Positions 6,596 through 48,477 of a stretch of DNA of 48,750 nt are shown here, piece by piece. The DNA lies in contig JBCNVA010000041.1 of assembly GCA_039630445.1 (NCBI GenBank), forward strand, positions 1-48,750, in the 5' to 3' direction. The notes beneath the pieces are model-generated. The model saw only the letters and a list, made by a program, of their open reading frames with translations. It did no database searches and had not been told where the DNA came from. The stretch's first letter is position 1; each line of letters begins with the position of its first letter. This DNA comes from Armatimonadota bacterium. Lineage in GTDB: Bacteria > Armatimonadota > Fimbriimonadia > Fimbriimonadales > GBS-DC. A program made the translations under genes and the position numbers.

Positions 6596-7702
6596 ATGAA
6601 CGCCCGTCCCTCCGCATCGATGGAGCGCGCCGTCGGCATCGTGGAGCAGATTGTGCGCGAGCGCGACGGCATCCAGTATCTCCATGTGCGTACCGAGCAG
6701 GGCATGCGCGATGCGCTGAACTATATCGCGCTGACAGGCAGGCTCCAGCCAGGTGTGCAGGTGCTGCTCAATACCACCGCTACGCGGTTGGAGCTGGGCA
6801 CGGGCGGATATGATTTTGTCATAGCAGCTCATCTAAGTGAGCCAGACTGTTCTGCTATACCCGACCCGCGCGATAAGGAGCGCCTACTGATGCGCCTGCG
6901 CTATACGCCGTTGCAGCTGGCTTTGCCCGCTGCGGAGTGCCTCTACCCCGATGCGCTGGCAGGCACGCTGGAAGGCACACCCGTCGTAGCGATTCTATTG
7001 CATAGCCACCTTGCGCCCGTTGTGGGCACGATCCACTACGCCCATCCCGATGCGCGAGTCGTCTATGTGATGACCGATTCCGCTGCACTTGCGCTCGATT
7101 TCAGCGAGACGGTGAGCTGGCTGAAGGCGCGGGGCTGGCTCGCAGGCACTATCACGATTGGGCAAGCGTTTGGCGGAGATTTGGAAGCAGTCAATCTCTA
7201 CAGCGCGCTGCTACTGGCGCGCCACACCCTGCATGCCGATTTTATCGTGGTGGGTCAGGGACCGGGTCATCTGGGCACGGGGACGCGCTGGGGCTTCTCA
7301 GGCATCGATCAGGGGATGGCGCTGAACGCGGCAGATACGCTGGGCGGGCTACCCATCGCTGCCTTGCGGATTAGCTTCGACGATCCGCGCGAACGCCATC
7401 AGGGGGTGAGCCACCATTCGCTAACCATCTTGAGCCGAGTCGTGCGCATGCCCTGCCATGTGCCTGTGCCCATGCTGCCAGAAGCTCAGATGGAGCGCGT
7501 GCTGCGCGATCTCGAACATGCGGGCATCCCAGAACATCACACGCTCCATTTTATGGATGCGAACGCCGCGTTCGAATGGCTTTGCCAGCAAGAGGTGCCG
7601 CTCGCCACGATGGGGCGCGATGCCCAGACCGAACGCGCCTACTTCTTAGCGGGATGCGCGGCGGGCTTACTGGCGGACGGTCTTTTCAAAGGCATGCGTT
7701 AG
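6596..7702 (+). CDS. DUF3866 family protein
   Basis: The N-terminal signature ALNYIALTGRLQPGVQVLLNTTATRLELGTGGYDFVIA matches the remembered DUF3866 core (LLNTTA..LGLGTGG). The size of 368 aa is typical. The start lies 2 nt after the translin-like stop. Confidence 0.7.
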   Translation: MNARPSASMERAVGIVEQIVRERDGIQYLHVRTEQGMRDALNYIALTGRLQPGVQVLLNTTATRLELGTGGYDFVIAAHLSEPDCSAIPDPRDKERLLMRLRYTPLQLALPAAECLYPDALAGTLEGTPVVAILLHSHLAPVVGTIHYAHPDARVVYVMTDSAALALDFSETVSWLKARGWLAGTITIGQAFGGDLEAVNLYSALLLARHTLHADFIVVGQGPGHLGTGTRWGFSGIDQGMALNAADTLGGLPIAALRISFDDPRERHQGVSHHSLTILSRVVRMPCHVPVPMLPEAQMERVLRDLEHAGIPEHHTLHFMDANAAFEWLCQQEVPLATMGRDAQTERAYFLAGCAAGLLADGLFKGMR

Positions 7703-8712
7703 TCTGCGCGCACCGCTACAATTCGGAAGTTGCGTGCCCAGCGCAGGGTCAACGGCGTAAGCACCATCCCCAGCGCGTTCACCAGGCGAACCAGCGGATT
7801 GCCCCCTGCACCGCCCAGGTAGGCATAGTGGCGAGCGCAAAACCCGAACCTCTCGATCTGGCGTGCCAAAGCGGCTGGGTCAAACAGCCGCTCCAGCACC
7901 GCACCCGTTTCCGGATTAACGGGACACTCCACAGGCACATAGACCGAATCGGGCAGCTCGCCACTATCAAGATAGCGCTGCACCGCCTCAATAATCTGTG
8001 GGCGAGTCATTCGGCTGGTGCGTCGCGCCAACTCCTGCACTAATGCCGAGTCCAGTTGGGGAAATGCTTCCTGAATCATTTCCGCACGCATCACCACATA
8101 GGGCTTCTTGATCAAGTGCCCCTCAAACGCCCCTGCGGGACCATTTTCGAATCGGAGCCAGAGTTCGCGTGTGTGGGCAGCCAGTCGCCGATTGGCGCCA
8201 TTATTGCCATCCGCAATCAGCAGAACGCCCCCGGGCTTCAGCAGGCGTGCCGCCTCCGTAAGAAAAGCGTCCACATCCTGATAATGCGAGATCGACTCGT
8301 TGGACAGGATCATATCAAACGAACCCGAGTCAAACTCCAGACGCTCTACGCTGGCAAGCTGGGCGTACAGGGGTGGGCTGAGTTGGAAATCCTCGATCAT
8401 CTGCTGGAAGGTGGGCAGGCGCGTGGTGGAGATGTCAACCCCGTACACCGCTTTTGCGCCCATTAGCCCCAGAACAACCGCCAGCGCCCCAAAACCGCAC
8501 CCCGCATCCAAGATGACTTTACCTTCGGGGTCAAAACGCGCCAGTCGGCAGAGGTCCACCACATAGCGGGTCAGCCGCTGGCAGCCTGCTAAATCGGCGA
8601 GATATCCGTAGTAGCGCCATAACTCCTCGTCATAACGCGCCTTGTTCGGCTCCGCCAGTGCCTGACTGTAGACGGCGTGCAAACGGCGGCTGACCCGCTC
8701 GAAGTCCCACAT
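7699..8712 (-). CDS. Class I SAM-dependent methyltransferase with C-terminal extension
   Basis: Motif I VILDAGCGFGALAV, then VYGVDIS, and post-I/II FDMILSNESISH...LKPGGVLLI. Confidence 0.8.
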   Translation of the reverse strand: MWDFERVSRRLHAVYSQALAEPNKARYDEELWRYYGYLADLAGCQRLTRYVVDLCRLARFDPEGKVILDAGCGFGALAVVLGLMGAKAVYGVDISTTRLPTFQQMIEDFQLSPPLYAQLASVERLEFDSGSFDMILSNESISHYQDVDAFLTEAARLLKPGGVLLIADGNNGANRRLAAHTRELWLRFENGPAGAFEGHLIKKPYVVMRAEMIQEAFPQLDSALVQELARRTSRMTRPQIIEAVQRYLDSGELPDSVYVPVECPVNPETGAVLERLFDPAALARQIERFGFCARHYAYLGGAGGNPLVRLVNALGMVLTPLTLRWARNFRIVAVRAD

Positions 8713-8730
8713 GGATACCTTTGCCCGTCG

Positions 8731-9045
8731 CTATTCGCTGACGATAGCCTGCACCTTCAGCCATGTAAGCGGCTGTCGGTGTCCCCAGCGCTTGCGCTCA
8801 TTCTTTTTGGGTTTATACTTAAAGCCAATAATCTTGGGGGCTTTACCTTGCCGCACCACCTCGGCAATCACCTTCGCCCCTTCGAGATAGGGTGCGCCGA
8901 CCCGCAGCTCGTTGTCGGTGCGAATCATCAGCACCTCGGTCAGCTCAATCTGGCTGCCTGGTTCCGCCTCGATTTTCTCCACACTAATCATCATGCCCGG
9001 TTCCACGCGATACTGCTTGCCACCTGTCTGAATGATTGCGTACAT
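8731..9045 (-). CDS. rplU: 50S ribosomal protein L21
   Basis: [17 protein letters not shown]...[19 protein letters not shown] is canonical L21 (104 aa). The ATG was verified at 9045..9043. The ORF-track extension to 9234 is rejected as a low-complexity upstream read-through. Confidence 0.93.
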
Positions 9046-9075
9046 TCCTTGTCTATCCCTCCGTCTGCGCTGGGC

Positions 9076-9105
9076 ATTATACCCGATAGGGTTCAAATGG
9101 CACAA
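9076..9105 (-). promoter_or_regulatory. Sigma70-like promoter upstream of rplU
   Basis: On the minus strand: TTGTGC, an 18-nt spacer, then TATAAT (plus-strand ATTATA at 9076..9081). This lies about 30 nt upstream of the rplU ATG. Confidence 0.35.
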
Positions 9106-9208
9106 GGCGACGGAAGTGCACGGATATAGACAAAATCCTGCCTGCGCGGGGTTTTTAGCTAGCGGAGGTTGGCTTCGTTTGAATGGGCGCGACTTCAGCC
9201 GACCAAGC

Positions 9209-10030
9209 TTACCTCTCCAGCAGGCTCCAGTCAATCGGCAAGGGTGTGCCGTCAGGAGTGCAGTTGTAGATGGAGAAATCGGTCACGCCCGCTTCGCGCA
9301 GTATATCCTCATCGAACCACACTTTGCCCGTGCAGGTGGACGGCTCGCGGCGCACCAGTTCATACACTGCATCCGCCATGATGTCGGCTTTGCGCCAGTA
9401 GCGCGGCTCACCCAGCTGAAACGCGATGGTCGCTTGACTCTCGATCAGCGTGCGGGGCCAAAGCGAGTTGACAGCAATATTGTGAGCGCGCACTTCCTCT
9501 GCCAGTCCATAGGTGAGCAGGGTCATGCCGAATTTGGAGATCATATACGCGATGCGCCCAGCCACGACCGAAGGCTCAATCGGGGGCGACATATTGATGA
9601 TGTGTCCCCAGCGCTGCTCGATCATGGTGGGCAACACCGCCTGCGCACACAGGAACGCCGCGCGCACATTCACGCTCATCACAAGGTCGAAGCGTTTGGC
9701 AGGCGTTTCCAGCAGCGGTTTCCACCAGAGCGCGCCCGCATTGTTCACCAAGATATCGATGCGTCCCCAGCGTTGTAGGGTTTGCTCCACCATCTGCTGG
9801 ATGGCGGTTTCGTCGCGCACATCGACGCGGATCGGCAGCGCTTCGCCACCCAGTGCCTGCACCTCCTCCGCTACGGTGTAGATGGTGCCGGGCAGGCGCG
9901 GGTCGGGTTCGGCGGTTTTGGCGGCGATCACGACGCGCACACCTTCGCGTGCTAGGCGCAGCGCAATCGCTCGCCCAATCCCCCGACTGGCTCCCGTGAT
10001 GATCGCCACGCGACCTCTCAGTTCACTCAT
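9209..10030 (-). CDS. SDR family NAD(P)-dependent oxidoreductase
   Basis: [20 protein letters not shown] (TGxxxGxG), NNAG, and the catalytic YxxxK in YMISK. The ATG at 10030 (the track gives TTG at 10033) overlaps the Uma2 stop by 8 nt. Confidence 0.85.
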
Positions 10031-10601
10031 CAAAGATCTCCTTTGGCTTAAGGTGCAGTTCGGGTAGCACGGTCGATAACACTGCTTCCTCGCCCGTGAA
10101 CCAGCCCAGCGAGCGATAGCTACGCTCCTCGTGCACCAACACCTCTATCTCACGCTTCTCGATATCGACCACCCACACTTCGGGCACGCCCAGGGCATGA
10201 TAGTCGCGCAACTTATCTCGCCACGCGCTGTAAGTGTCGGAGGGTGAAAGCACCTCGATCACGAGATCGGGAGCGATTTCTAACCGCGATTGTTCTATCA
10301 AGGAGTCTAAATCGCCTGCTCGCTCATAGGACAGGTAGAACAGATCGGGCTGGCGTGTGCGCAACGGCTGACGCTGAATGACAAAATCGAAGGGCGCGGG
10401 GAACAGCTCACCTGAACGCTTTCCCGCAACGAACTCGCCGATTTTCAGGCTCAGGCGCATCACGATGCGCTGGTGCTTCAACGTGGGTGTGGGCAACTTA
10501 ATGACCTCACCATCAATAATCTCGTAGCGTGTGAGCGGTAGGTTGAGATACTCCTCCCAGCTAACGACTCTATGCTTGACAGGTTGGGCAGCAGTCGCCA
10601 T
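10023..10601 (-). CDS. Uma2 family endonuclease (DUF820, PD-(D/E)XK fold)
   Basis: YEIIDGEV...PTLKHQRI...QPDLFY...APDLVIEVLSPS...YHALGVPEVWVVD is the typical Uma2 motif series. Confidence 0.8.
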   Translation of the reverse strand: MATAAQPVKHRVVSWEEYLNLPLTRYEIIDGEVIKLPTPTLKHQRIVMRLSLKIGEFVAGKRSGELFPAPFDFVIQRQPLRTRQPDLFYLSYERAGDLDSLIEQSRLEIAPDLVIEVLSPSDTYSAWRDKLRDYHALGVPEVWVVDIEKREIEVLVHEERSYRSLGWFTGEEAVLSTVLPELHLKPKEIFDE

Positions 10602-41644: not shown

Positions 41645-41718
41645 GGGTATACTCTCACATGGCTACGCAGGCATGACGGAGCGTGCCGCTGCATCACAAG
41701 GAAGGAGGTTCAGGCGAT

Positions 41719-43722
41719 ATGGAGATAGCCCATCTCGTTCCCTATGTGGCGCCCGCATTAGGTGGCGCGGGCATTTTGATTGCTGGGCTGAACTATTATT
41801 CGGTCATTCGCCGTCCAGACGGCACGGAGGCGATGCGCACCTACGCGCAAGCCATTCACGACGGCGCGATGACCTTTTTGCGACGCGAGTACATCGCGAT
41901 CAGCCTCTTTGCACTGGTGCTGTTTGTGGTTTTGACGGTAGCGTTTTATCAGCAAGCACCCCTGATTGGCGTCGCCTATCTGTTTGGCGCGATCAGCTCG
42001 ATGCTGGCGGGCTATATCGGCATGAAGGCGTCGACGCGCAGTGGGGTGCGCTCGACGGAGGCGGCGCGTCAGGGTGGGATGGGCGCGGCGCTGGTGGTGG
42101 CGTTCACGGGCGGCTCGGTGATGGGGCTTGCCGTCGCCGCGCTCGGCTTGCTCGGCATCGGCTTGATTGTGCTGCTGGGGCTGGGGCTGGACACCAAGAC
42201 GCTGGTGCAGTACCTGACGGGCTACTCGATGGGCGCGTCGTCGGTGGCACTCTTTGCGCGCGTGGGCGGAGGTATCTACACCAAAGCGGCTGATGTGGGC
42301 GCAGACCTGGTAGGCAAGGTGGAGGCAGGCATTCCGGAGGATGACCCGCGCAACCCTGCTGTGCTTGCCGATAATGTGGGCGATAATGTGGGCGACACGG
42401 CGGGCATGGGCGCGGATCTGTTCGAGAGCTATGTCGGCTCGGTGGTTGCCGCGGCGGTCATCGGCGCAACTATAGCCGTTGCAGGTGGGCAACCGCTGGC
42501 GTATGTCATCCTGCCGCTTGCCCTGATCGCGCTGGGGCTGATCGCCTCGGTGATCGGCGTCTTTTCGATACGGCTGTTCCGCCAGATGGATCCACAGTGG
42601 GCGCTGAACGGCGCGACGCTGGTGGCGATCCTGCTCTTTCTGGTGGGCGCGGTGTGGCTGACACAGGCGATGGTGAACTCGCTGGCGCCCTACTGGGCGG
42701 TGCTGGCGGGGCTGTTCGCGGGCGTGTTCATCGGCGCGGTCAGCCAGTATTACACCAGTGGTCCTCCCATTCGGCAGATTGCCCGTTCCTCGCGCTACGG
42801 CACTGCGCCCAACATCTTGTCGGGCATCAGTGTCGGTTATCTCAGCACGGTGCTGCCGCTGCTGGGCATCGCGGCGGCGATTTGGCTTGCCTACGCTACA
42901 AACGGGCTATACGGGATTGCACTGGCGGGTGTCGGCATGTTGGCAACGATCGGCATCGTGATGAGCACCGATAGCTACGGTCCGATTGCCGACAACGCGG
43001 GCGGGATTGCCGAAGTCGCGGGCTTCGGTGAGAGCGTGCGCAAAATCACCGACCGACTGGACGCGCTGGGCAACACCACCGCAGCGATCGGCAAGGGCTT
43101 CGCGATTGGCAGCGCGGCGCTGACGGCGCTTGCCCTGTTCGCGGCGTATCAGAGCCAGACGGGGCTGAAGGCGATCAATCTGACCACGCCGCAGACGCTG
43201 ATTGGCTTGCTGATCGGGATCGCGATGCCGAATCTGTTCGCGGCGCTCACGCTGAAGGCAGTGGCGCGGGCGTCCGACCAGATGGTGGAGGAGGTGCGCC
43301 GCCAGTTCCGTGAGTTGGGACTGCTGGAGGGGCGCGGCAAGCCCGACTACAACCGCTGCATCGACATCGTGACGAGCGCTGCGCTGCGCGAGATGATCCT
43401 ACCCGGTGCGATCGCCGTGATTGCGCCGCTGCTGGTAGGCTACTTCCTTGGGGCAGAGGCGCTCGGCGGCTTCCTGGCAGGCGCGCTGGGCATGGGCGTC
43501 GTCACGGGGCTGATGATGGCGAACGCAGGCGGCGCATGGGACAACGCCAAAAAGTGGATTGAGGAAGGGCACGAAGGCGGCAAGGGCAGCGAGGCGCACA
43601 AAGCCGCTGTCGTGGGCGACACGGTGGGCGACCCGTTCAAAGACACCACAGGACCCAGCATGAACATCCTCATCAAGTTGATGAGCATCGTTGCGCTGGT
43701 GTTCGCCCCGCTGCTGGGATAG
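41719..43722 (+). CDS. hppA: Membrane-bound ion-translocating pyrophosphatase (K+-dependent sequence type)
   Basis: Canonical M-PPase motifs ([28 protein letters not shown]). [10 protein letters not shown] has Ala rather than Lys at the K+-dependence position. The ATG at 41719 is preceded by GAAGGAGG; the track start at 41683 is rejected. Confidence 0.93.
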
Positions 43723-43727
43723 AGACC

Positions 43728-45719
43728 TTACTGCCCGCGCTTTTTCAACTCGGCGGCGACTCCTGCCAGCGCATAGGTGCGCCATGAGGGATCGGCGATG
43801 CCGCGTGTCCATCGCGCCGCCGCGCGAAACTCGCCTTTCCTTGCCAGCCCGACGGCATAGCCCGCCTCATAGATTGCGTTCAGATACCGATCGACGCGCC
43901 CCGCCTCCCGACGCAGCCGTTCCGCCTCCTGAAGTCGTCCCACCTGCGCTGCTGCTGCCGCCGCGTACATCAGATATTTCCGACGCGCAACTTCGGACCA
44001 TCTGGGATCACCTTCAGAATATGCCAGCGCGGCTTCGCCCAAAAGCGGGTCATAAAACCGCTGATAAACCGCTTGTTCGGTCATCTCCTGCAGCGTGTAG
44101 CTAATTTGGATACCCAGTTTTTCCGCGCCCAGCCGCTGCTGATAGCGCAGTACCTGTAGCAGGTAGGGGTAGTAATCCGCCTCATGCAGCTGCAGAATGT
44201 TGTAAGCGGCGAGGGAGATGAATCTGGCAAGCAGCTCGTGCAAGGTTGATTCCGAGGCAATGAGTTTTTCAGGTTGCCAAAAAACAGCAGCCGTTTCGAA
44301 GGCTAACTCGTCGTGGTGTATCAGGGCATAGATAGGCTCTATCAACTCGGCAGGAAGCGCAAGCGGGGGCTGTTGCAGCGATTCGAGGGCGCGCCGTAGC
44401 CGTTGCGCCATACTGGGAGATGGCGCCATTTGCAGCAGCTGGCGTGCCTCCTGCACACGCCCCGTACGCGCATACCGAAGCGCTGCTTCAAGCCGCAGGC
44501 GCTCCTGAGCGATGGGCGATTCAACCTGACTTAGCAGTCGCCTCACCTGAGCAGTACGCCCTTGTGCTGCCATGCTTAGGATCAGCAGATCACGCGCCCT
44601 GTTGGCTATCCATGGGTCATTCAGAGCAGCGAGGAATTGCTCCAGCTCGCGCTCACGCCCAGACAGTGCCAGCCCATAGCAAAAGCCCGTCTCCAGATGG
44701 ACTTCGGCGCGCTCATAGCGCTCGACGGGGAGGCGGTTCAGCATCCGCTGCGTTGCATCGGAGGGTAGGGGAGCCGTCAAGCGCGCCGTAAGACGCGCTA
44801 ACAGCTTGAAATCGATGGTGGACGGATCGTGGCGATTCAGATAGTCGCGCAGGGTTCGCTCCGCCAGCATCAGGGCACGAGCCGTTTGCCCTCTCTGTGC
44901 CAGTGCATTCACCTGCCGCACTCGATCCTCCCATTCAGGAGGCAGGGGCGCGGAAATGTCCCCATCGAGCAGATTGCGTTCAGTGGAGGGCAGTTCTTCC
45001 AATCGTTGCAGCCACTGTTCGGCTCGGTCGTAGTCACCCGCCTGCAACGCCAGCCGTGCGAGGCGCAACCCCAACAGCAGATCGAGCGCTTCTTGAGGCG
45101 ACTGATCCATCACACGGGCTGCTGCTCCAAACTGATCCACTTCGGCGGCGCGGCGAACAATTGAACGGAGGTAGAGTGGAATCTTATCTTTTGCTTGCTT
45201 GTCAGCCTGCAGCATTTGCACGACTTCCAGCGCGTCGTTGAAGCGCCCCGCCTCTATCAGCGCACGGATCAGTCGCTGGAACAGAAGCGCGCTATTCGGT
45301 AGGTCGTCGTCATCCACCTGATGGCCAGCCACATTCTGCCGTGCATGGTACGAGCCGTACTGCCGATGGATGTGCCGCGCCACTTCAAGGGCATCATCCA
45401 GCCGATTGGTATCGAGAAGGGCGTGCCCAATCGCGTGCCATGCAAACGGCTGCACTTCGAGCGGCGCGTTCTGGGCGAACCGTCGTGCGCCTCGGAGGTC
45501 ATTGGCATGGACGAGTGCGCGGGCAATATGCGCCATCGCCACCGCCCGATTGCCTGCAGGTTCTATCGCCTCGGCAGTTGCACGCGCTTCCCGCATCATG
45601 GAGCGCGAGTTCACAGGCAGCAGCTCACGATAGAGACGCGGAAGCATCCACCACAGCAGTAGCAAGATTGCCGTCCCGATGACCAGCCATTTGCGCTTTC
45701 CTTGCCACATCCAGCGCAT
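43728..45719 (-). CDS. N-terminally membrane-anchored helical-repeat (TPR-like) protein, function unknown
   Basis: This is the lower two-thirds of track ORF 43728..46667. The start is placed at the ATG at 45719 (MRWMWQGKRKWLVIGTAILLLLWWMLP), preceded by a G-rich Shine-Dalgarno; the ATG at 45737 is an alternative. One TM is followed by about 630 aa of Leu/Ala/Arg-rich helical repeats. Confidence 0.6.
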   Translation of the reverse strand: MRWMWQGKRKWLVIGTAILLLLWWMLPRLYRELLPVNSRSMMREARATAEAIEPAGNRAVAMAHIARALVHANDLRGARRFAQNAPLEVQPFAWHAIGHALLDTNRLDDALEVARHIHRQYGSYHARQNVAGHQVDDDDLPNSALLFQRLIRALIEAGRFNDALEVVQMLQADKQAKDKIPLYLRSIVRRAAEVDQFGAAARVMDQSPQEALDLLLGLRLARLALQAGDYDRAEQWLQRLEELPSTERNLLDGDISAPLPPEWEDRVRQVNALAQRGQTARALMLAERTLRDYLNRHDPSTIDFKLLARLTARLTAPLPSDATQRMLNRLPVERYERAEVHLETGFCYGLALSGRERELEQFLAALNDPWIANRARDLLILSMAAQGRTAQVRRLLSQVESPIAQERLRLEAALRYARTGRVQEARQLLQMAPSPSMAQRLRRALESLQQPPLALPAELIEPIYALIHHDELAFETAAVFWQPEKLIASESTLHELLARFISLAAYNILQLHEADYYPYLLQVLRYQQRLGAEKLGIQISYTLQEMTEQAVYQRFYDPLLGEAALAYSEGDPRWSEVARRKYLMYAAAAAAQVGRLQEAERLRREAGRVDRYLNAIYEAGYAVGLARKGEFRAAARWTRGIADPSWRTYALAGVAAELKKRGQ

Positions 45720-45778
45720 GATAACCCCCCTTATCATATTACCCCGTGAGTGCCCCGTTGCCGAGCTGTGCAACCACC

Positions 45779-46660
45779 CTATCGCAGCAATAGCCAGAGG
45801 AGCAGCGCGGCGGTGCCCCCGACCACCAGCAAGCTCGCCAATAGCTCCTGACGGCTCAGGCGGAACTCGCGCCAGTTGACCGCCAGCACTACCACCGCCA
45901 TCGGCACCAGCGCAGGCAGCGCCGCTGCCACGCCCAGCATCACCACCACCAGATACGCCCATAGCACGAAAAAGAGCGCGATTGCCGTCGCCCCTGTGCG
46001 CAGCCCGAATCGATAGAGACACGCTGCATAGAGCGTTAGGAACACGAAATCGCCCACGCCCATCAGCACAATTGGCACCACGCGTTCGACAGTGGGCGCT
46101 GCTGCAGGTGCGGTCATCACAGCCACTGCGGCACGCTCCACCACCGCGGGCGCCTTCTCCACCATCTGCTTCACAAAGCCCATCGGAGTTAGCACCGTGA
46201 TGGCGTCCACCAGCGCAGCAAAGGGCGCAACGGGCACAAGCAGGTTCCTGTCCCGAATCAGGCGCGACAGCAGGCTGCCCAACCCAATCGCCGTGAGAAT
46301 CAGTAGATAGCCGTGAAAGGCGCGATAGAACACGGCAAGGGCGAGCGGAAGGGGACGCGAGGGCGAAACGCCCCACCACGCAGGCAGAAAGAACCAAAGC
46401 ACCAGCGCGGTCGCACCCCCGCCCAGCAGCACGAACACCAGCCAGCGACGCGCTTCGCACATACGCGCCAGCGAAAACACCAATCCCAGCATCGACGCCA
46501 TCAGCGCCAGCGTGCTGAGCAGCGTTCCAATCCAGACCCAGCCGATGGGCACACGCACAAATGGCGTGAGCGTCTGCAACAGCAGATAAGCCAAGCTCCA
46601 GCCTAACCACGCCCAGCCAGACCCGATGGATAGACGCGCGGCACTCCCCGTGGTCGCCAT
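45779..46660 (-). CDS. Polytopic membrane protein with presenilin/SPP-like D, GxGD and PAL motifs (putative A22 intramembrane aspartyl protease)
   Basis: About 9 hydrophobic segments. D152 lies in FAALVDAITVL (codon GAC verified at 46207..46205). G201-V-G-D204 lies in LMGVGDFVFLTLY (verified at 46060..46049). P249-A-L lies in ALPALVPM. The frame has membrane-protein composition, unlike the overlapping 979-aa frame. Confidence 0.6.
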   Translation of the reverse strand: MATTGSAARLSIGSGWAWLGWSLAYLLLQTLTPFVRVPIGWVWIGTLLSTLALMASMLGLVFSLARMCEARRWLVFVLLGGGATALVLWFFLPAWWGVSPSRPLPLALAVFYRAFHGYLLILTAIGLGSLLSRLIRDRNLLVPVAPFAALVDAITVLTPMGFVKQMVEKAPAVVERAAVAVMTAPAAAPTVERVVPIVLMGVGDFVFLTLYAACLYRFGLRTGATAIALFFVLWAYLVVVMLGVAAALPALVPMAVVVLAVNWREFRLSRQELLASLLVVGGTAALLLWLLLR

Positions 46661-46692
46661 CTCCCAATCAGCGGGAGTATACCTGCTCAGGG

Positions 46693-48477
46693 TCAGGAGC
46701 AGCTACCCAGGTCGAACAGCACAGCGAGGAGATCCGCCTCGTCCACCACGCCATCAAGGTTCACATCCGCGGCATGATCGCCTTCAGAAGGGTCAACCCC
46801 CATCGCCAGCAGCACCCTTAGCAGGTCAGCATCGTCCACGCAGCTGTCACCATCCACATCAGACAGATAGATCACCTCTGGCAGCTCATCGGTTTCCACG
46901 CATCGCCCAAGTGGCGTGTCGGGCGACCAGAGGAAGCTGCCGCAGTTGTAGGGGGTACAGGGCGGTGTCTGGTTGGGTGGCAGGGAGCCGATGCTTACTG
47001 TGCCCAGAACAGGCGGTCCCGCATAGCCCAGCCCGCTCACCGTGCAACCCAGATCGACGCGCAGCTCCTGACCGCTCAGGCGAATGGCAGGGTTGTTCAG
47101 CACCTGCCGCCGCGCCCCCAGCGTCAGCGTGCTGCCCGAAACGGTGACCTCGCGAATCTCATAGTGCAGGTGCGGTCCCGTGGAGTTGCCTGTACTGCCC
47201 AGCCGGGCAATTGGCTGACCTGCCACCACATCGGTGCCGTTGCTCACCAGAAAGTAGTTCAGGTGGGCATAGATCGTGGCGAGGTAGGTGTTGCTTGTGC
47301 CACTCACTCGGACATTGCTGACCAGCACGATGTAGTTGCCGTAGCCGCTGCAACCGCTCTGGGCACGGGTGTAGGCGCGTCCTGCATGCGAAGCCAGCAA
47401 CGGCTCGTTGCAATCCTGCAGCCAGCCCCCTGTGTAGGGACAGCTGGTGCGTGAGGAGGAGGCGCGGTTGAAATCGACGGCATGCAGAATGTTGCCCCCG
47501 CCATGCCCATCGTAGGTGGAAGGTGTCCAGTATTGTCCCTGTCGCCAGGGTGCAATCAGGTTCCAGAGGAACTGCTCCTCCGCCGTGCGGTAGACCGCGC
47601 GCAGCGTCTGGTTTTGGGTTATCGAAAGCGTAAGGGAACGGTTGCTGGTGTAAGGGACGCCGTTGCGCTCCCAGTGAACAAAACTGCCGCCATCGGGCGC
47701 GGTCTCAGGTGCGGTCAAGGTAATCTGGCTGCCCGCCACATAGGAGAGCGTGGTGGGTGTTGTTGCCGTGCCCGATGGGGGATTGCCCAGCAGGTCGCGC
47801 AGGCTGACGGTAATACCGACCCCGCTTACGCTCGATTCGAGGGTAAGCGTGTAGATGGGGCGGGCTGCTCCCAATTTCGCCAAGTAGACCCCGCTATAGA
47901 GGCGCGAATCGGCAGACCAGCCGACCTGTCCGCCGTTGGCATCGTCCCAGCGGATTTTCCACCACACGAGCCGATTTGCCGTGTCGATCACCACTTGATA
48001 CGCCCAGCCTGTCGCCCCTGCAGGCTTCTGGGTGAGGATGCCGTAGTTCAAGCCGGGACCCGTGCGCACATTCAGCGGGTTGCCGTCAGGTGCGACCTGC
48101 ACGGGATACGCACCCGATGCTGTGATATTGGGATAAGCTCCCTCACCCGGCATCGGTAGAAACTGCGGTTGGTTCATTAGCCTCTCGATGGACCAGCCGC
48201 GCTGACCATTTGACCACGCCACCTGCCACCAGGGCACACGGTTGCAAAGATCTGCTTCGCTCAGCACGATGCCGTCAGTGCCTGCAGGCGGACCGGGTTC
48301 GCGAATGGAGCCGCACGCACGCAGATGCACCCACAGCCGATTGCCTGATGCGGTGATACCCACGCGATCGCCTCGCTGAACCCCCTGTGCCTCCAGCCGC
48401 GGCAGGTAAACGCTTATCCCGATCAGCAGCGTTAGCCGTAGCCACCGCCCAGTGAACACCCTTTGTTGCCTCCTCAT
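46693..48477 (-). CDS. Secreted multidomain M23 metallopeptidase (SH3b x2, Ig-like repeat, M23, dockerin-like tail)
   Basis: Signal peptide. Two SH3b-like segments (VPWWQVAWSNGQRGWSIE; VWWKIRWDDANGGQVGWS). A FVHWERNG..L.A.Y bacterial repeat. The M23 core HAVDF...GYGNYIV...IYAHL...GSTGNSTGPHLHYEIR. The C-terminal repeats DVDGDSCVDDADLL and DVNLDGVVDEADLL. Confidence 0.8.
   Translation of the reverse strand: MRRQQRVFTGRWLRLTLLIGISVYLPRLEAQGVQRGDRVGITASGNRLWVHLRACGSIREPGPPAGTDGIVLSEADLCNRVPWWQVAWSNGQRGWSIERLMNQPQFLPMPGEGAYPNITASGAYPVQVAPDGNPLNVRTGPGLNYGILTQKPAGATGWAYQVVIDTANRLVWWKIRWDDANGGQVGWSADSRLYSGVYLAKLGAARPIYTLTLESSVSGVGITVSLRDLLGNPPSGTATTPTTLSYVAGSQITLTAPETAPDGGSFVHWERNGVPYTSNRSLTLSITQNQTLRAVYRTAEEQFLWNLIAPWRQGQYWTPSTYDGHGGGNILHAVDFNRASSSRTSCPYTGGWLQDCNEPLLASHAGRAYTRAQSGCSGYGNYIVLVSNVRVSGTSNTYLATIYAHLNYFLVSNGTDVVAGQPIARLGSTGNSTGPHLHYEIREVTVSGSTLTLGARRQVLNNPAIRLSGQELRVDLGCTVSGLGYAGPPVLGTVSIGSLPPNQTPPCTPYNCGSFLWSPDTPLGRCVETDELPEVIYLSDVDGDSCVDDADLLRVLLAMGVDPSEGDHAADVNLDGVVDEADLLAVLFDLGSCS

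Follow-up and report, generated by a model that had tools for sequence, protein, structure and literature searches.

The window analysed here is a 48,750-nucleotide stretch of DNA from an Armatimonadota bacterium (assembly GCA_039630445.1, contig JBCNVA010000041.1, positions 1 to 48,750 of the forward strand). On its minus strand lies the gene of a 293-aa polytopic membrane protein, which an earlier reading made without database searches (hereafter the sequence-only reading) had proposed to be a bacterial intramembrane aspartyl protease of the presenilin/signal peptide peptidase (SPP) type, MEROPS A22. Presenilin/SPP enzymes are known from eukaryotes and archaea, and cleave other proteins within the membrane. 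Our findings favour a model where this protein represents a new bacterial family, likely a remote relative of the A22 proteases. The gene and the elements on which the argument turns are the following (residues are those of the 293-aa protein; TM, transmembrane helix; ORF, open reading frame).

45779..46660, minus strand: gene of the 293-aa polytopic membrane protein, presenilin/SPP-like (ORF list, codon statistics, third-position substitution bias against homologous loci L001-L003, homologues)
46232..46255, minus strand: family motif R136-D-R-N139-L-L-V-P143 at the cytoplasmic entry of TM5 (conservation of P143 and N139)
46190..46249, minus strand: predicted TM5, residues 138-157, RNLLVPVAPFAALVDAITVL, with the proposed first catalytic Asp, D152, near its outer end (AlphaFold2 helix, invariant D152, A22 alignments)
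46061..46189, minus strand: loop 158-200 between the two Asp helices, predicted periplasmic (AlphaFold2 secondary structure, positive-inside counts)
46010..46072, minus strand: predicted TM6, residues 197-217, with G201-V-G-D204 and the proposed second catalytic Asp, then F205/F207 and R217-F218 (conservation, A22 alignments)
45878..45922, minus strand: predicted TM8, residues 247-261, opening with L248-P249-A250-L251-V-P253 (conservation; alignments to presenilin-1, SPP and SPPL2A)
45845..45877, minus strand: N262 (45875..45877) and E272 (45845..45847), flanking the cytoplasmic TM8-TM9 loop (conservation)
45720..46667, minus strand: spurious 5' part of the 979-codon ORF 43728..46667 (GC content at third codon positions, Gly/Ala/Arg-rich translation)

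In the ORF list the gene is a 293-codon, ATG-initiated frame (its coordinates take in the stop codon), overlain by a 979-codon ORF (43728..46667, minus strand) in another frame of the same strand. The sequence-only reading held that the longer ORF is spurious and masks the real gene, and this is borne out. GC contents at the three codon positions of the 293-aa frame (GC1/GC2/GC3) are 0.67/0.48/0.77, coding-like for a sequence of about 61% GC, as opposed to a GC3 of 0.49 for the 979-aa frame over the same bases. Mismatches against L001 amount to 17%, 8% and 43% at first, second and third codon positions of the 293-aa frame, and against L001-L003 together to 17-23%, 8-13% and 38-44%; this third-position bias indicates purifying selection acting on the 293-aa frame. 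The first 310 or so residues of the 979-aa ORF are a Gly/Ala/Arg-rich translation, and the downstream gene of a tetratricopeptide repeat (TPR) protein has a start of its own at ATG 45719 (or 45737), with the ribosome-binding site AAGGGGGG ahead, from which it encodes 663 aa with an N-terminal hydrophobic anchor. Given the low GC3, the biased composition and the sound TPR start, the 979-aa ORF is chimeric, joining the real TPR gene to a spurious 5' extension. The 293-aa frame is the real gene, and the longer ORF is spurious over that stretch.

Hydropathy and two AlphaFold models give nine helices of TM length, as had been estimated from the hydrophobic segments: TM1 13-34, TM2 39-70, TM3 73-95, TM4 106-132, TM5 138-157, TM6 about 197-217 (starting at 197 or 202), TM7 222-241, TM8 about 247-261 (listed as helix 251-261) and TM9 270-292. 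Codon-by-codon translation places D152 at 46205..46207, GVGD (201-204) at 46049..46060 and PAL (249-251) at 45908..45916. Together with the predicted helices, it upholds the proposed succession of an Asp inside a TM helix, GVGD204 and P249-A-L. The spacing from D204 to P249 is 45 residues, as had been stated, against 48 from D385 to P433 in presenilin-1 (PS1; the sequence used agrees with PDB 5a63_B over residues 1-467). PAL precedes helix 251-261, a single helix (222-241) separates the GxGD helix from the PAL helix, and the further hydrophobic stretch expected after the PAL segment is present as TM9. The placement of the motifs within their helices is that of A22: the first Asp is close to the C-terminal end of its own helix, the GxGD Asp and PAL are where theirs begin, and each of the three is on the side facing the connecting loop. 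That loop (158-200) contains P159-x-G161, a short amphipathic helix (162-177, VKQMVEKAP) and, immediately before GxGD, a beta strand (191-193).

The orientation of these elements was predicted from charge. Family-wide, loops 2, 4, 6 and 8 are rich in Lys and Arg (0.9-1.7 K+R per 4-8 residues), whereas loops 1, 3 and 7 are poor, which places the N-terminus inside, and loop 5 and the C-terminus outside. For D152, D204 and PAL alike this predicts a position in the outer half of the bilayer, towards the connecting loop, and the topology check proposed with the sequence-only reading finds D152 and D204 on adjacent predicted helices (TM5 and TM6). The catalytic loop is predicted to be outside, an SPP-like arrangement and the mirror image of presenilin. 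One homologue, P0153 (399 aa), carries a C-terminal F5/8 type C (discoidin) domain after the last helix (residues 288-384, E=2e-7). Such domains are normally extracytoplasmic, in agreement with a C-out topology, and the fusion suggests an extracytoplasmic C-terminus with, possibly, carbohydrate-directed targeting.

A collection clustered at 90% identity contains 73 homologues, all labelled 'hypothetical protein'; all the named ones are Armatimonadota, mostly Fimbriimonadales, and many come from hot-spring metagenome-assembled genomes (MAGs). An exhaustive profile search over 1.84 billion representatives yielded 482 clusters at E<1e-3, 359 of them also passing E<1e-10, with named members and GTDB loci from Armatimonadota (Fimbriimonadia, Abditibacteriaceae) and candidate division WS1. 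Repeating the homologue search with the broad alignment left the set of close relatives essentially unchanged; the locus search used a narrower alignment, and its patterns recover the GxGDF subclade only. Conservation was counted in 205 full-length members, reaching down to 25-30% identity with the 293-aa protein. P143 and D152 are invariant (205/205 each), as are G201 and D204 (204/204 each), followed by G128 and N262 (204/205 each), E272 (203/205), P249 (198/205), F207 (196/205), L251 (194/205), P253 (189/205), N139 (184/205) and A250 (166/205). Such conservation of the three motifs across the family argues that they are not mere chance. Position 203, the second Gly of GxGD, is more plastic: 105 members have Gly there and 99 have Ala, and the family consensus around the second Asp reads I-G-P-A-D-F-x-F-L. 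The family motif is therefore Gx[G/A]D, with strict GxGD confined to the subclade of the 293-aa protein; the GxGD claimed earlier stands for this protein (GVGD) but not for the family as a whole. We know of no A22 counterpart to the N-terminal TM5 motif RDRNLLVP, the invariant P143, N262 and E272, or the near-invariant N139. Two further homologues deserve mention. P0073 (161 aa) is a fragment 98% identical to part of the 293-aa protein (14% of its length). It is deposited in a MAG labelled Thermoleophilia (Actinomycetota), probably through mis-binning of a contig that belongs to the organism of the window or to one very closely related to it. P0065 (347 aa) alone among the homologues comes with a precomputed Pfam label, PF28006.1; the Pfam scan finds no family in this protein.

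The relationship to A22 was assessed by scoring a hidden Markov model (HMM), made with hmmbuild from the 205 full-length members, against individual A22 proteins with filters off. Human SPP (the SPP-like nature of the sequence used being confirmed by a 72-bit match to SPPL2A 9k92_A) scores 16.3 bits in one domain (P=2.4e-7), a value reached by 0 of 1997 window-shuffled decoys, the best of which attain 9.0-10.5 bits. All three motifs fall within this one alignment, which pairs lvDiflV with IYD219VFWV, iGpaDflF with LGLGD265VVIP and aLPAL with AQPAL. SPPL2A, represented by a fragment copied from PDB search output, scores 12.0 bits overall and 13.8 for its best domain (P=5e-6; 1 of 2000 decoys), over GFGD, RFD and PALLYLVP. 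PS1 reaches 9.7 bits (P=2.5e-5; 1-2 of 2000 decoys), with residues 380-441 (KLGLGDFIFY...ALPALPI) aligned almost gap-free. As a null from real sequence, 978 ORFs flanking 33 homologous loci peak at 6.6 bits (P=2e-4). Alignment of profiles with hhalign gave P=0.0035 for SPP, 0.0085 for PS1 and 0.0054-0.025 for an alignment of the archaeal presenilin/SPP homologue (PSH). These alignments all keep the first Asp in register, and those long enough to include the second keep that one too. D152 is matched to D219 of SPP, D257 of PS1 (whose residues 249-277 hhalign pairs with 144-172) and D162 of PSH; the GxGD segment to GLGD of SPP and PS1, GFGD of SPPL2A and GMGD of PSH; and the PAL segment to ALPALP of PS1 and QPAL of SPP and SPPL2A. 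At the level of sequence, similarity to SPP, SPPL2A and PS1 over the catalytic region is statistically supported.

Structural comparison again brings up PS1, though at low TM-scores (0.28-0.35). An AlphaFold2 model from an alignment of 64 diverse members has a predicted local distance difference test score (pLDDT) of 90.4 and a predicted template modelling score of 0.88, superseding an earlier model from a shallow alignment (pLDDT 77) for which Foldseek gave no significant match. With the newer model the top Foldseek match in the PDB is PS1 chain 8k8e_B (E=1.1e-3, probability 1.00), from a gamma-secretase complex with a substrate mimetic, and PS1 chains make up five of the nine best matches. 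We read this not as a demonstration of the presenilin fold but as a predicted local core in common, running from the Asp helix through a short helix, a strand, the GxGD helix and a spacer helix to the PAL helix, set inside a different overall bundle. Two mean-field direct coupling analyses for a TM5-TM6 contact returned noise only (gap artefacts in one, an effective number of sequences of 37 in the other).

Among known systems, SPP and its SPPL relatives (MEROPS A22B, PF04258; human HM13, SPPL2A 9k92) gave the best sequence statistics of all comparisons. They share with the 293-aa protein an Asp in a TM helix, GxGD opening the next helix and PAL two helices on, at similar spacing; the residue pair RF following the GxGD helix (LYRFG in the 293-aa protein, LLRFD in SPP, CRRFD in SPPL2A); (E/K)AP in the loop that follows the first Asp; and a predicted orientation with the catalytic loop exoplasmic. 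The 293-aa family differs in having no above-threshold Pfam match (weak A22B matches occur in only 3 of 149 members), an extra helix after the PAL helix, no Tyr before the first Asp, Ala at the third GxGD position in half of its members, and a bacterial host. Four helices, not five, precede the first Asp helix, so that the N-terminus is predicted to be inside rather than outside as in SPP. PS1 (MEROPS A22A, PF01080; 5a63, 8k8e) provides a local match, GLGDFIFY...ALPALPI against GVGDFVFL...ALPALVPM, almost gap-free, and D257-LVAVLCPKGPLRMLVETA resembles D152-AITVLTPMGFVKQMVEKA; its best structural match is the substrate-mimetic-bound state with an ordered short helix after PS1 TM6 and beta strands. 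Unlike PS1, the 293-aa protein has the opposite membrane orientation, its Asp helices are TM5 and TM6, the TM-score is about 0.3, it lacks the long cytosolic loop and endoproteolysis site, and partner subunits are not expected. PSH (MCMJR1; PF06550, 4hyg) is likewise a stand-alone prokaryotic enzyme of similar size (301 aa), with both Asps in hhalign register and KAP after the first; yet it is not significant by HMMER, is missing from the Foldseek list and has a presenilin-like orientation. PSH also carries PPL instead of PAL (PMC2947513).

Several observations weigh against an A22 relationship. The 293-aa protein has no significant match in Pfam, NCBIfam or PDB sequences, and none of the curated A22 profiles (PF01080, PF04258, PF06550, NCBIfam PSH) detects it above cut-off. 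The family profile, searched against the PDB, likewise gives no significant match; the best is otopetrin-2 (over the N-terminal helices), with no A22 chain on top. The scoring described above was a targeted test, its support does not survive a PDB-wide search, PSH is not significant against the family HMM, and the calibrated hhalign probabilities for the A22 comparisons are only 2-9%. Foldseek TM-scores to PS1 are only 0.28-0.35 (0.34 for 8k8e_B), and PSH (4hyg), PS2 (7y5x) and SPPL2A (9k92) are absent from its match list. The Asps lie on the fifth and sixth predicted helices and PAL on the eighth, with helix 270-292 still to follow, instead of the canonical TM6/TM7/TM9 layout. Position 151, before the first Asp, is V, F, I, L or A and never predominantly Tyr among the 205 members, in departure from the 'YD' signature. 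Finally, across 33 loci no neighbour is kept beyond subclade synteny, and no substrate can be deduced from gene order.

The sequence-only reading had named the lack of a significant A22 profile hit as grounds for rejecting it, and in the Pfam direction this is literally what was found: nothing above threshold, only recurrent sub-threshold matches. Scanned singly against Pfam, the 149 representatives gave weak matches to DUF1206 in six (best E=8e-4), Presenilin in four (best E=0.024) and Peptidase_A22B in three (best E=0.0022), the same representatives giving scattered noise only against NCBIfam, and the family consensus noise only against Pfam. Residues 149-171 of the 293-aa protein match positions 182-204 of the Pfam Presenilin profile weakly (E=0.95). 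The recurrent DUF1206 matches (6 of 149) were taken as hydrophobic-helix noise, since DUF1206 has no known function. The family thus falls outside curated-profile membership. Calibration puts this in perspective: human SPP as a PDB query detects PS2 and PS1 only weakly (E=0.08-0.18), and a PS1 query does not reach PSH there. Known A22 subfamilies detect one another no better than the 293-aa family detects them. Given the curated-profile failure and the noncanonical layout, we file the family as a new variant within the superfamily: judging by its sequences, it is probably a previously unannotated family, almost entirely of Armatimonadota, and not a member of an existing one. The presenilin/SPP relationship claimed earlier gains support from the family HMM scores of SPP, SPPL2A and PS1, the Asps in hhalign register, PS1 as top structural match and the failure of type IV prepilin peptidases (A24) as an alternative. 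Overall, we consider it likely that the 293-aa protein cleaves within the membrane as a di-aspartyl protease and represents a new bacterial family, a remote A22 (clan AD) relative closest to the SPP branch.

The strongest competing explanation, which we nevertheless regard as rather unlikely, is a polytopic membrane protein with another function, such as a transporter or an ion-binding protein with two buried Asps, whose motifs are convergent or due to chance. This would sit well with the lack of any database profile above threshold, with a global TM-score to PS1 of about 0.3 and a helix arrangement unlike A22, and with the invariant polar residues on the cytoplasmic side (N139, N262, E272) that have no A22 counterpart. 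It does not account easily for three motifs in A22 order, at similar spacing and at matching helix ends, nor for single profile alignments to three A22 proteins (P=2e-7 to 2.5e-5) when decoys and 978 control ORFs remain well below the SPP score. PS1 chains moreover dominate the top structural matches, and no transporter family recurs among the weak ones.

A catalytically dead or non-proteolytic presenilin/SPP relative, acting as a scaffold or pseudoprotease, appears improbable. It draws on the half of the family in which Ala replaces the second Gly of GxGD, a position said, going by the title of Steiner 2000 (cited in PMC2947513), to be required for PS1 function. Yet the 293-aa protein itself has the full GxGD, and the Asps, G201 and PAL are essentially invariant at 25-30% overall identity, the pattern expected of a working active site.

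A type IV prepilin peptidase (MEROPS A24, PF01478) would be the more familiar candidate, being a bacterial polytopic di-aspartyl protease of clan AD that shares the GxGD motif, and a divergent prepilin/preflagellin peptidase of this kind might seem to be suggested by L001. At this locus (bacterium HR15, 6887..10375, minus strand) the homologue is followed, convergently, by a Pfam-confirmed prepilin peptidase (PilD; A24_N_bact and Peptidase_A24) and by two further ORFs which, by eye and from their N-terminal sequence, are PilC-like and PilT/PilB-like, so that it adjoins a pilD-pilC-pilT cluster. L001, however, thus has a separate A24 enzyme, and this PilD, used as the A24 negative control, compares with the family at hhalign P=0.47. 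No Peptidase_A24 match, even weak, appeared in about 240 member scans (149+89), so that the better A24 hit envisaged as a refutation was not found. The family and A24 have no detectable similarity, A24 lacks a PAL motif, and both PAL and a long loop between adjacent Asp helices are A22 features; this reading is effectively excluded. The least probable alternative, that the 979-aa ORF, as the longest over these bases, is the real gene and the 293-aa frame accidental, is effectively excluded as well by its GC3 (0.49 against 0.77), by substitutions clustering at the third position of the 293-aa frame, by hundreds of homologues of the 293-aa product, and by its Gly/Ala/Arg-rich N-terminal third and the TPR start with ribosome-binding site at 45719.

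If the protein is a presenilin/SPP-like protease, as we favour, its mode of action can be sketched by analogy with A22; proteolytic activity, the juxtaposition of the two Asps and the substrate class are inferred on that basis. The two Asps, D152 close to the outer end of TM5 and D204 where TM6 starts on the outer side, would be juxtaposed in a cavity open to water. There they would activate a water molecule, which would hydrolyse a peptide bond of a substrate TM helix coming in sideways from the lipid. P249-A-L, with its place at the beginning of TM8, would pack against the active site, and the loop between the Asp helices, with its short helix and beta strand, may help to hold the unwound substrate. 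As the predicted active site faces outward, the expected substrates would be N-in/C-out (type II) helices, for example signal peptides left after signal-peptidase cleavage, or signal-anchored proteins. It is plausible to hypothesize, with somewhat less assurance than the family assignment itself, that Armatimonadota and a few neighbouring candidate phyla possess their own ancient or horizontally acquired presenilin/SPP branch. It would consist of a compact stand-alone enzyme, found partly in hot springs, with four helices, a catalytic four and one more, and an outward active site, serving as a signal-peptide peptidase or in regulated intramembrane proteolysis.

Presenilin/SPP proteases have central roles in the biology of Alzheimer's disease, in Notch signalling and in the clearance of signal peptides, and their prokaryotic model has so far been archaeal PSH. 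We found nothing in the literature on presenilin-like proteins of Armatimonadota. Should the assignment hold, A22-type proteolysis would not be limited to archaea and eukaryotes, and the minimal presenilin catalytic core would be a four-helix unit of Asp helix, GxGD helix, spacer and PAL helix. The family would also bear on the origin of presenilin/SPP enzymes, for which Raut et al. 2021, going by the title, reportedly argue an archaeal source. Site-2 proteases, rhomboids and SppA-type peptidases would be joined by a fourth mechanistic class of bacterial intramembrane protease for ordinary TM helices. While keeping the three motifs, the family would exhibit a changed number of helices around them and a natural Gly/Ala polymorphism at the GxGD position. 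Its members would be small candidates for structural and mechanistic work, those from hot springs perhaps thermostable, and a conserved 'hypothetical protein' of Armatimonadota would receive a name.

The immediate surroundings of the gene in the window, which contains no detectable tRNA genes over its 48.75 kb, are as follows.

46693..48477, minus strand: M23 peptidase gene, 594 aa, with Peptidase_M23, a divergent InlB B-repeat and a C-terminal type I dockerin (32 nt upstream of the 293-aa gene)
43728..45719, minus strand: TPR-repeat protein gene, 663 aa (59 nt downstream of the 293-aa gene)
41683..43722, plus strand: membrane H+-translocating pyrophosphatase, complete (Pfam H_PPase, E=6e-251), adjoining the TPR gene

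The N-terminus of the TPR protein (MRWMWQGKRKWLVIGTAILLLLWWML...) looks like an uncleaved signal anchor, as in a type II membrane protein, the class of substrate expected of an SPP-like enzyme; the pairing is not repeated in L001 or the other loci examined. In the subclade formed by L009-L021 (52-56% identity), the gene follows a radical-SAM protein of about 384 aa (CNKGCKFC), by eye similar to menaquinone (Mqn)/futalosine enzymes, and a protein of about 305 aa, by eye heme A synthase-like, also lies upstream; the two neighbours are found 15-60 nt and about 1.2 kb upstream, and the arrangement looks like plain synteny rather than a functional operon. The M23 neighbour recurs only in the closest relative, L001, where it lies beside the homologue (78% identity), and the dockerin in the M23 protein of the window is unusual for a bacterium of this phylum.

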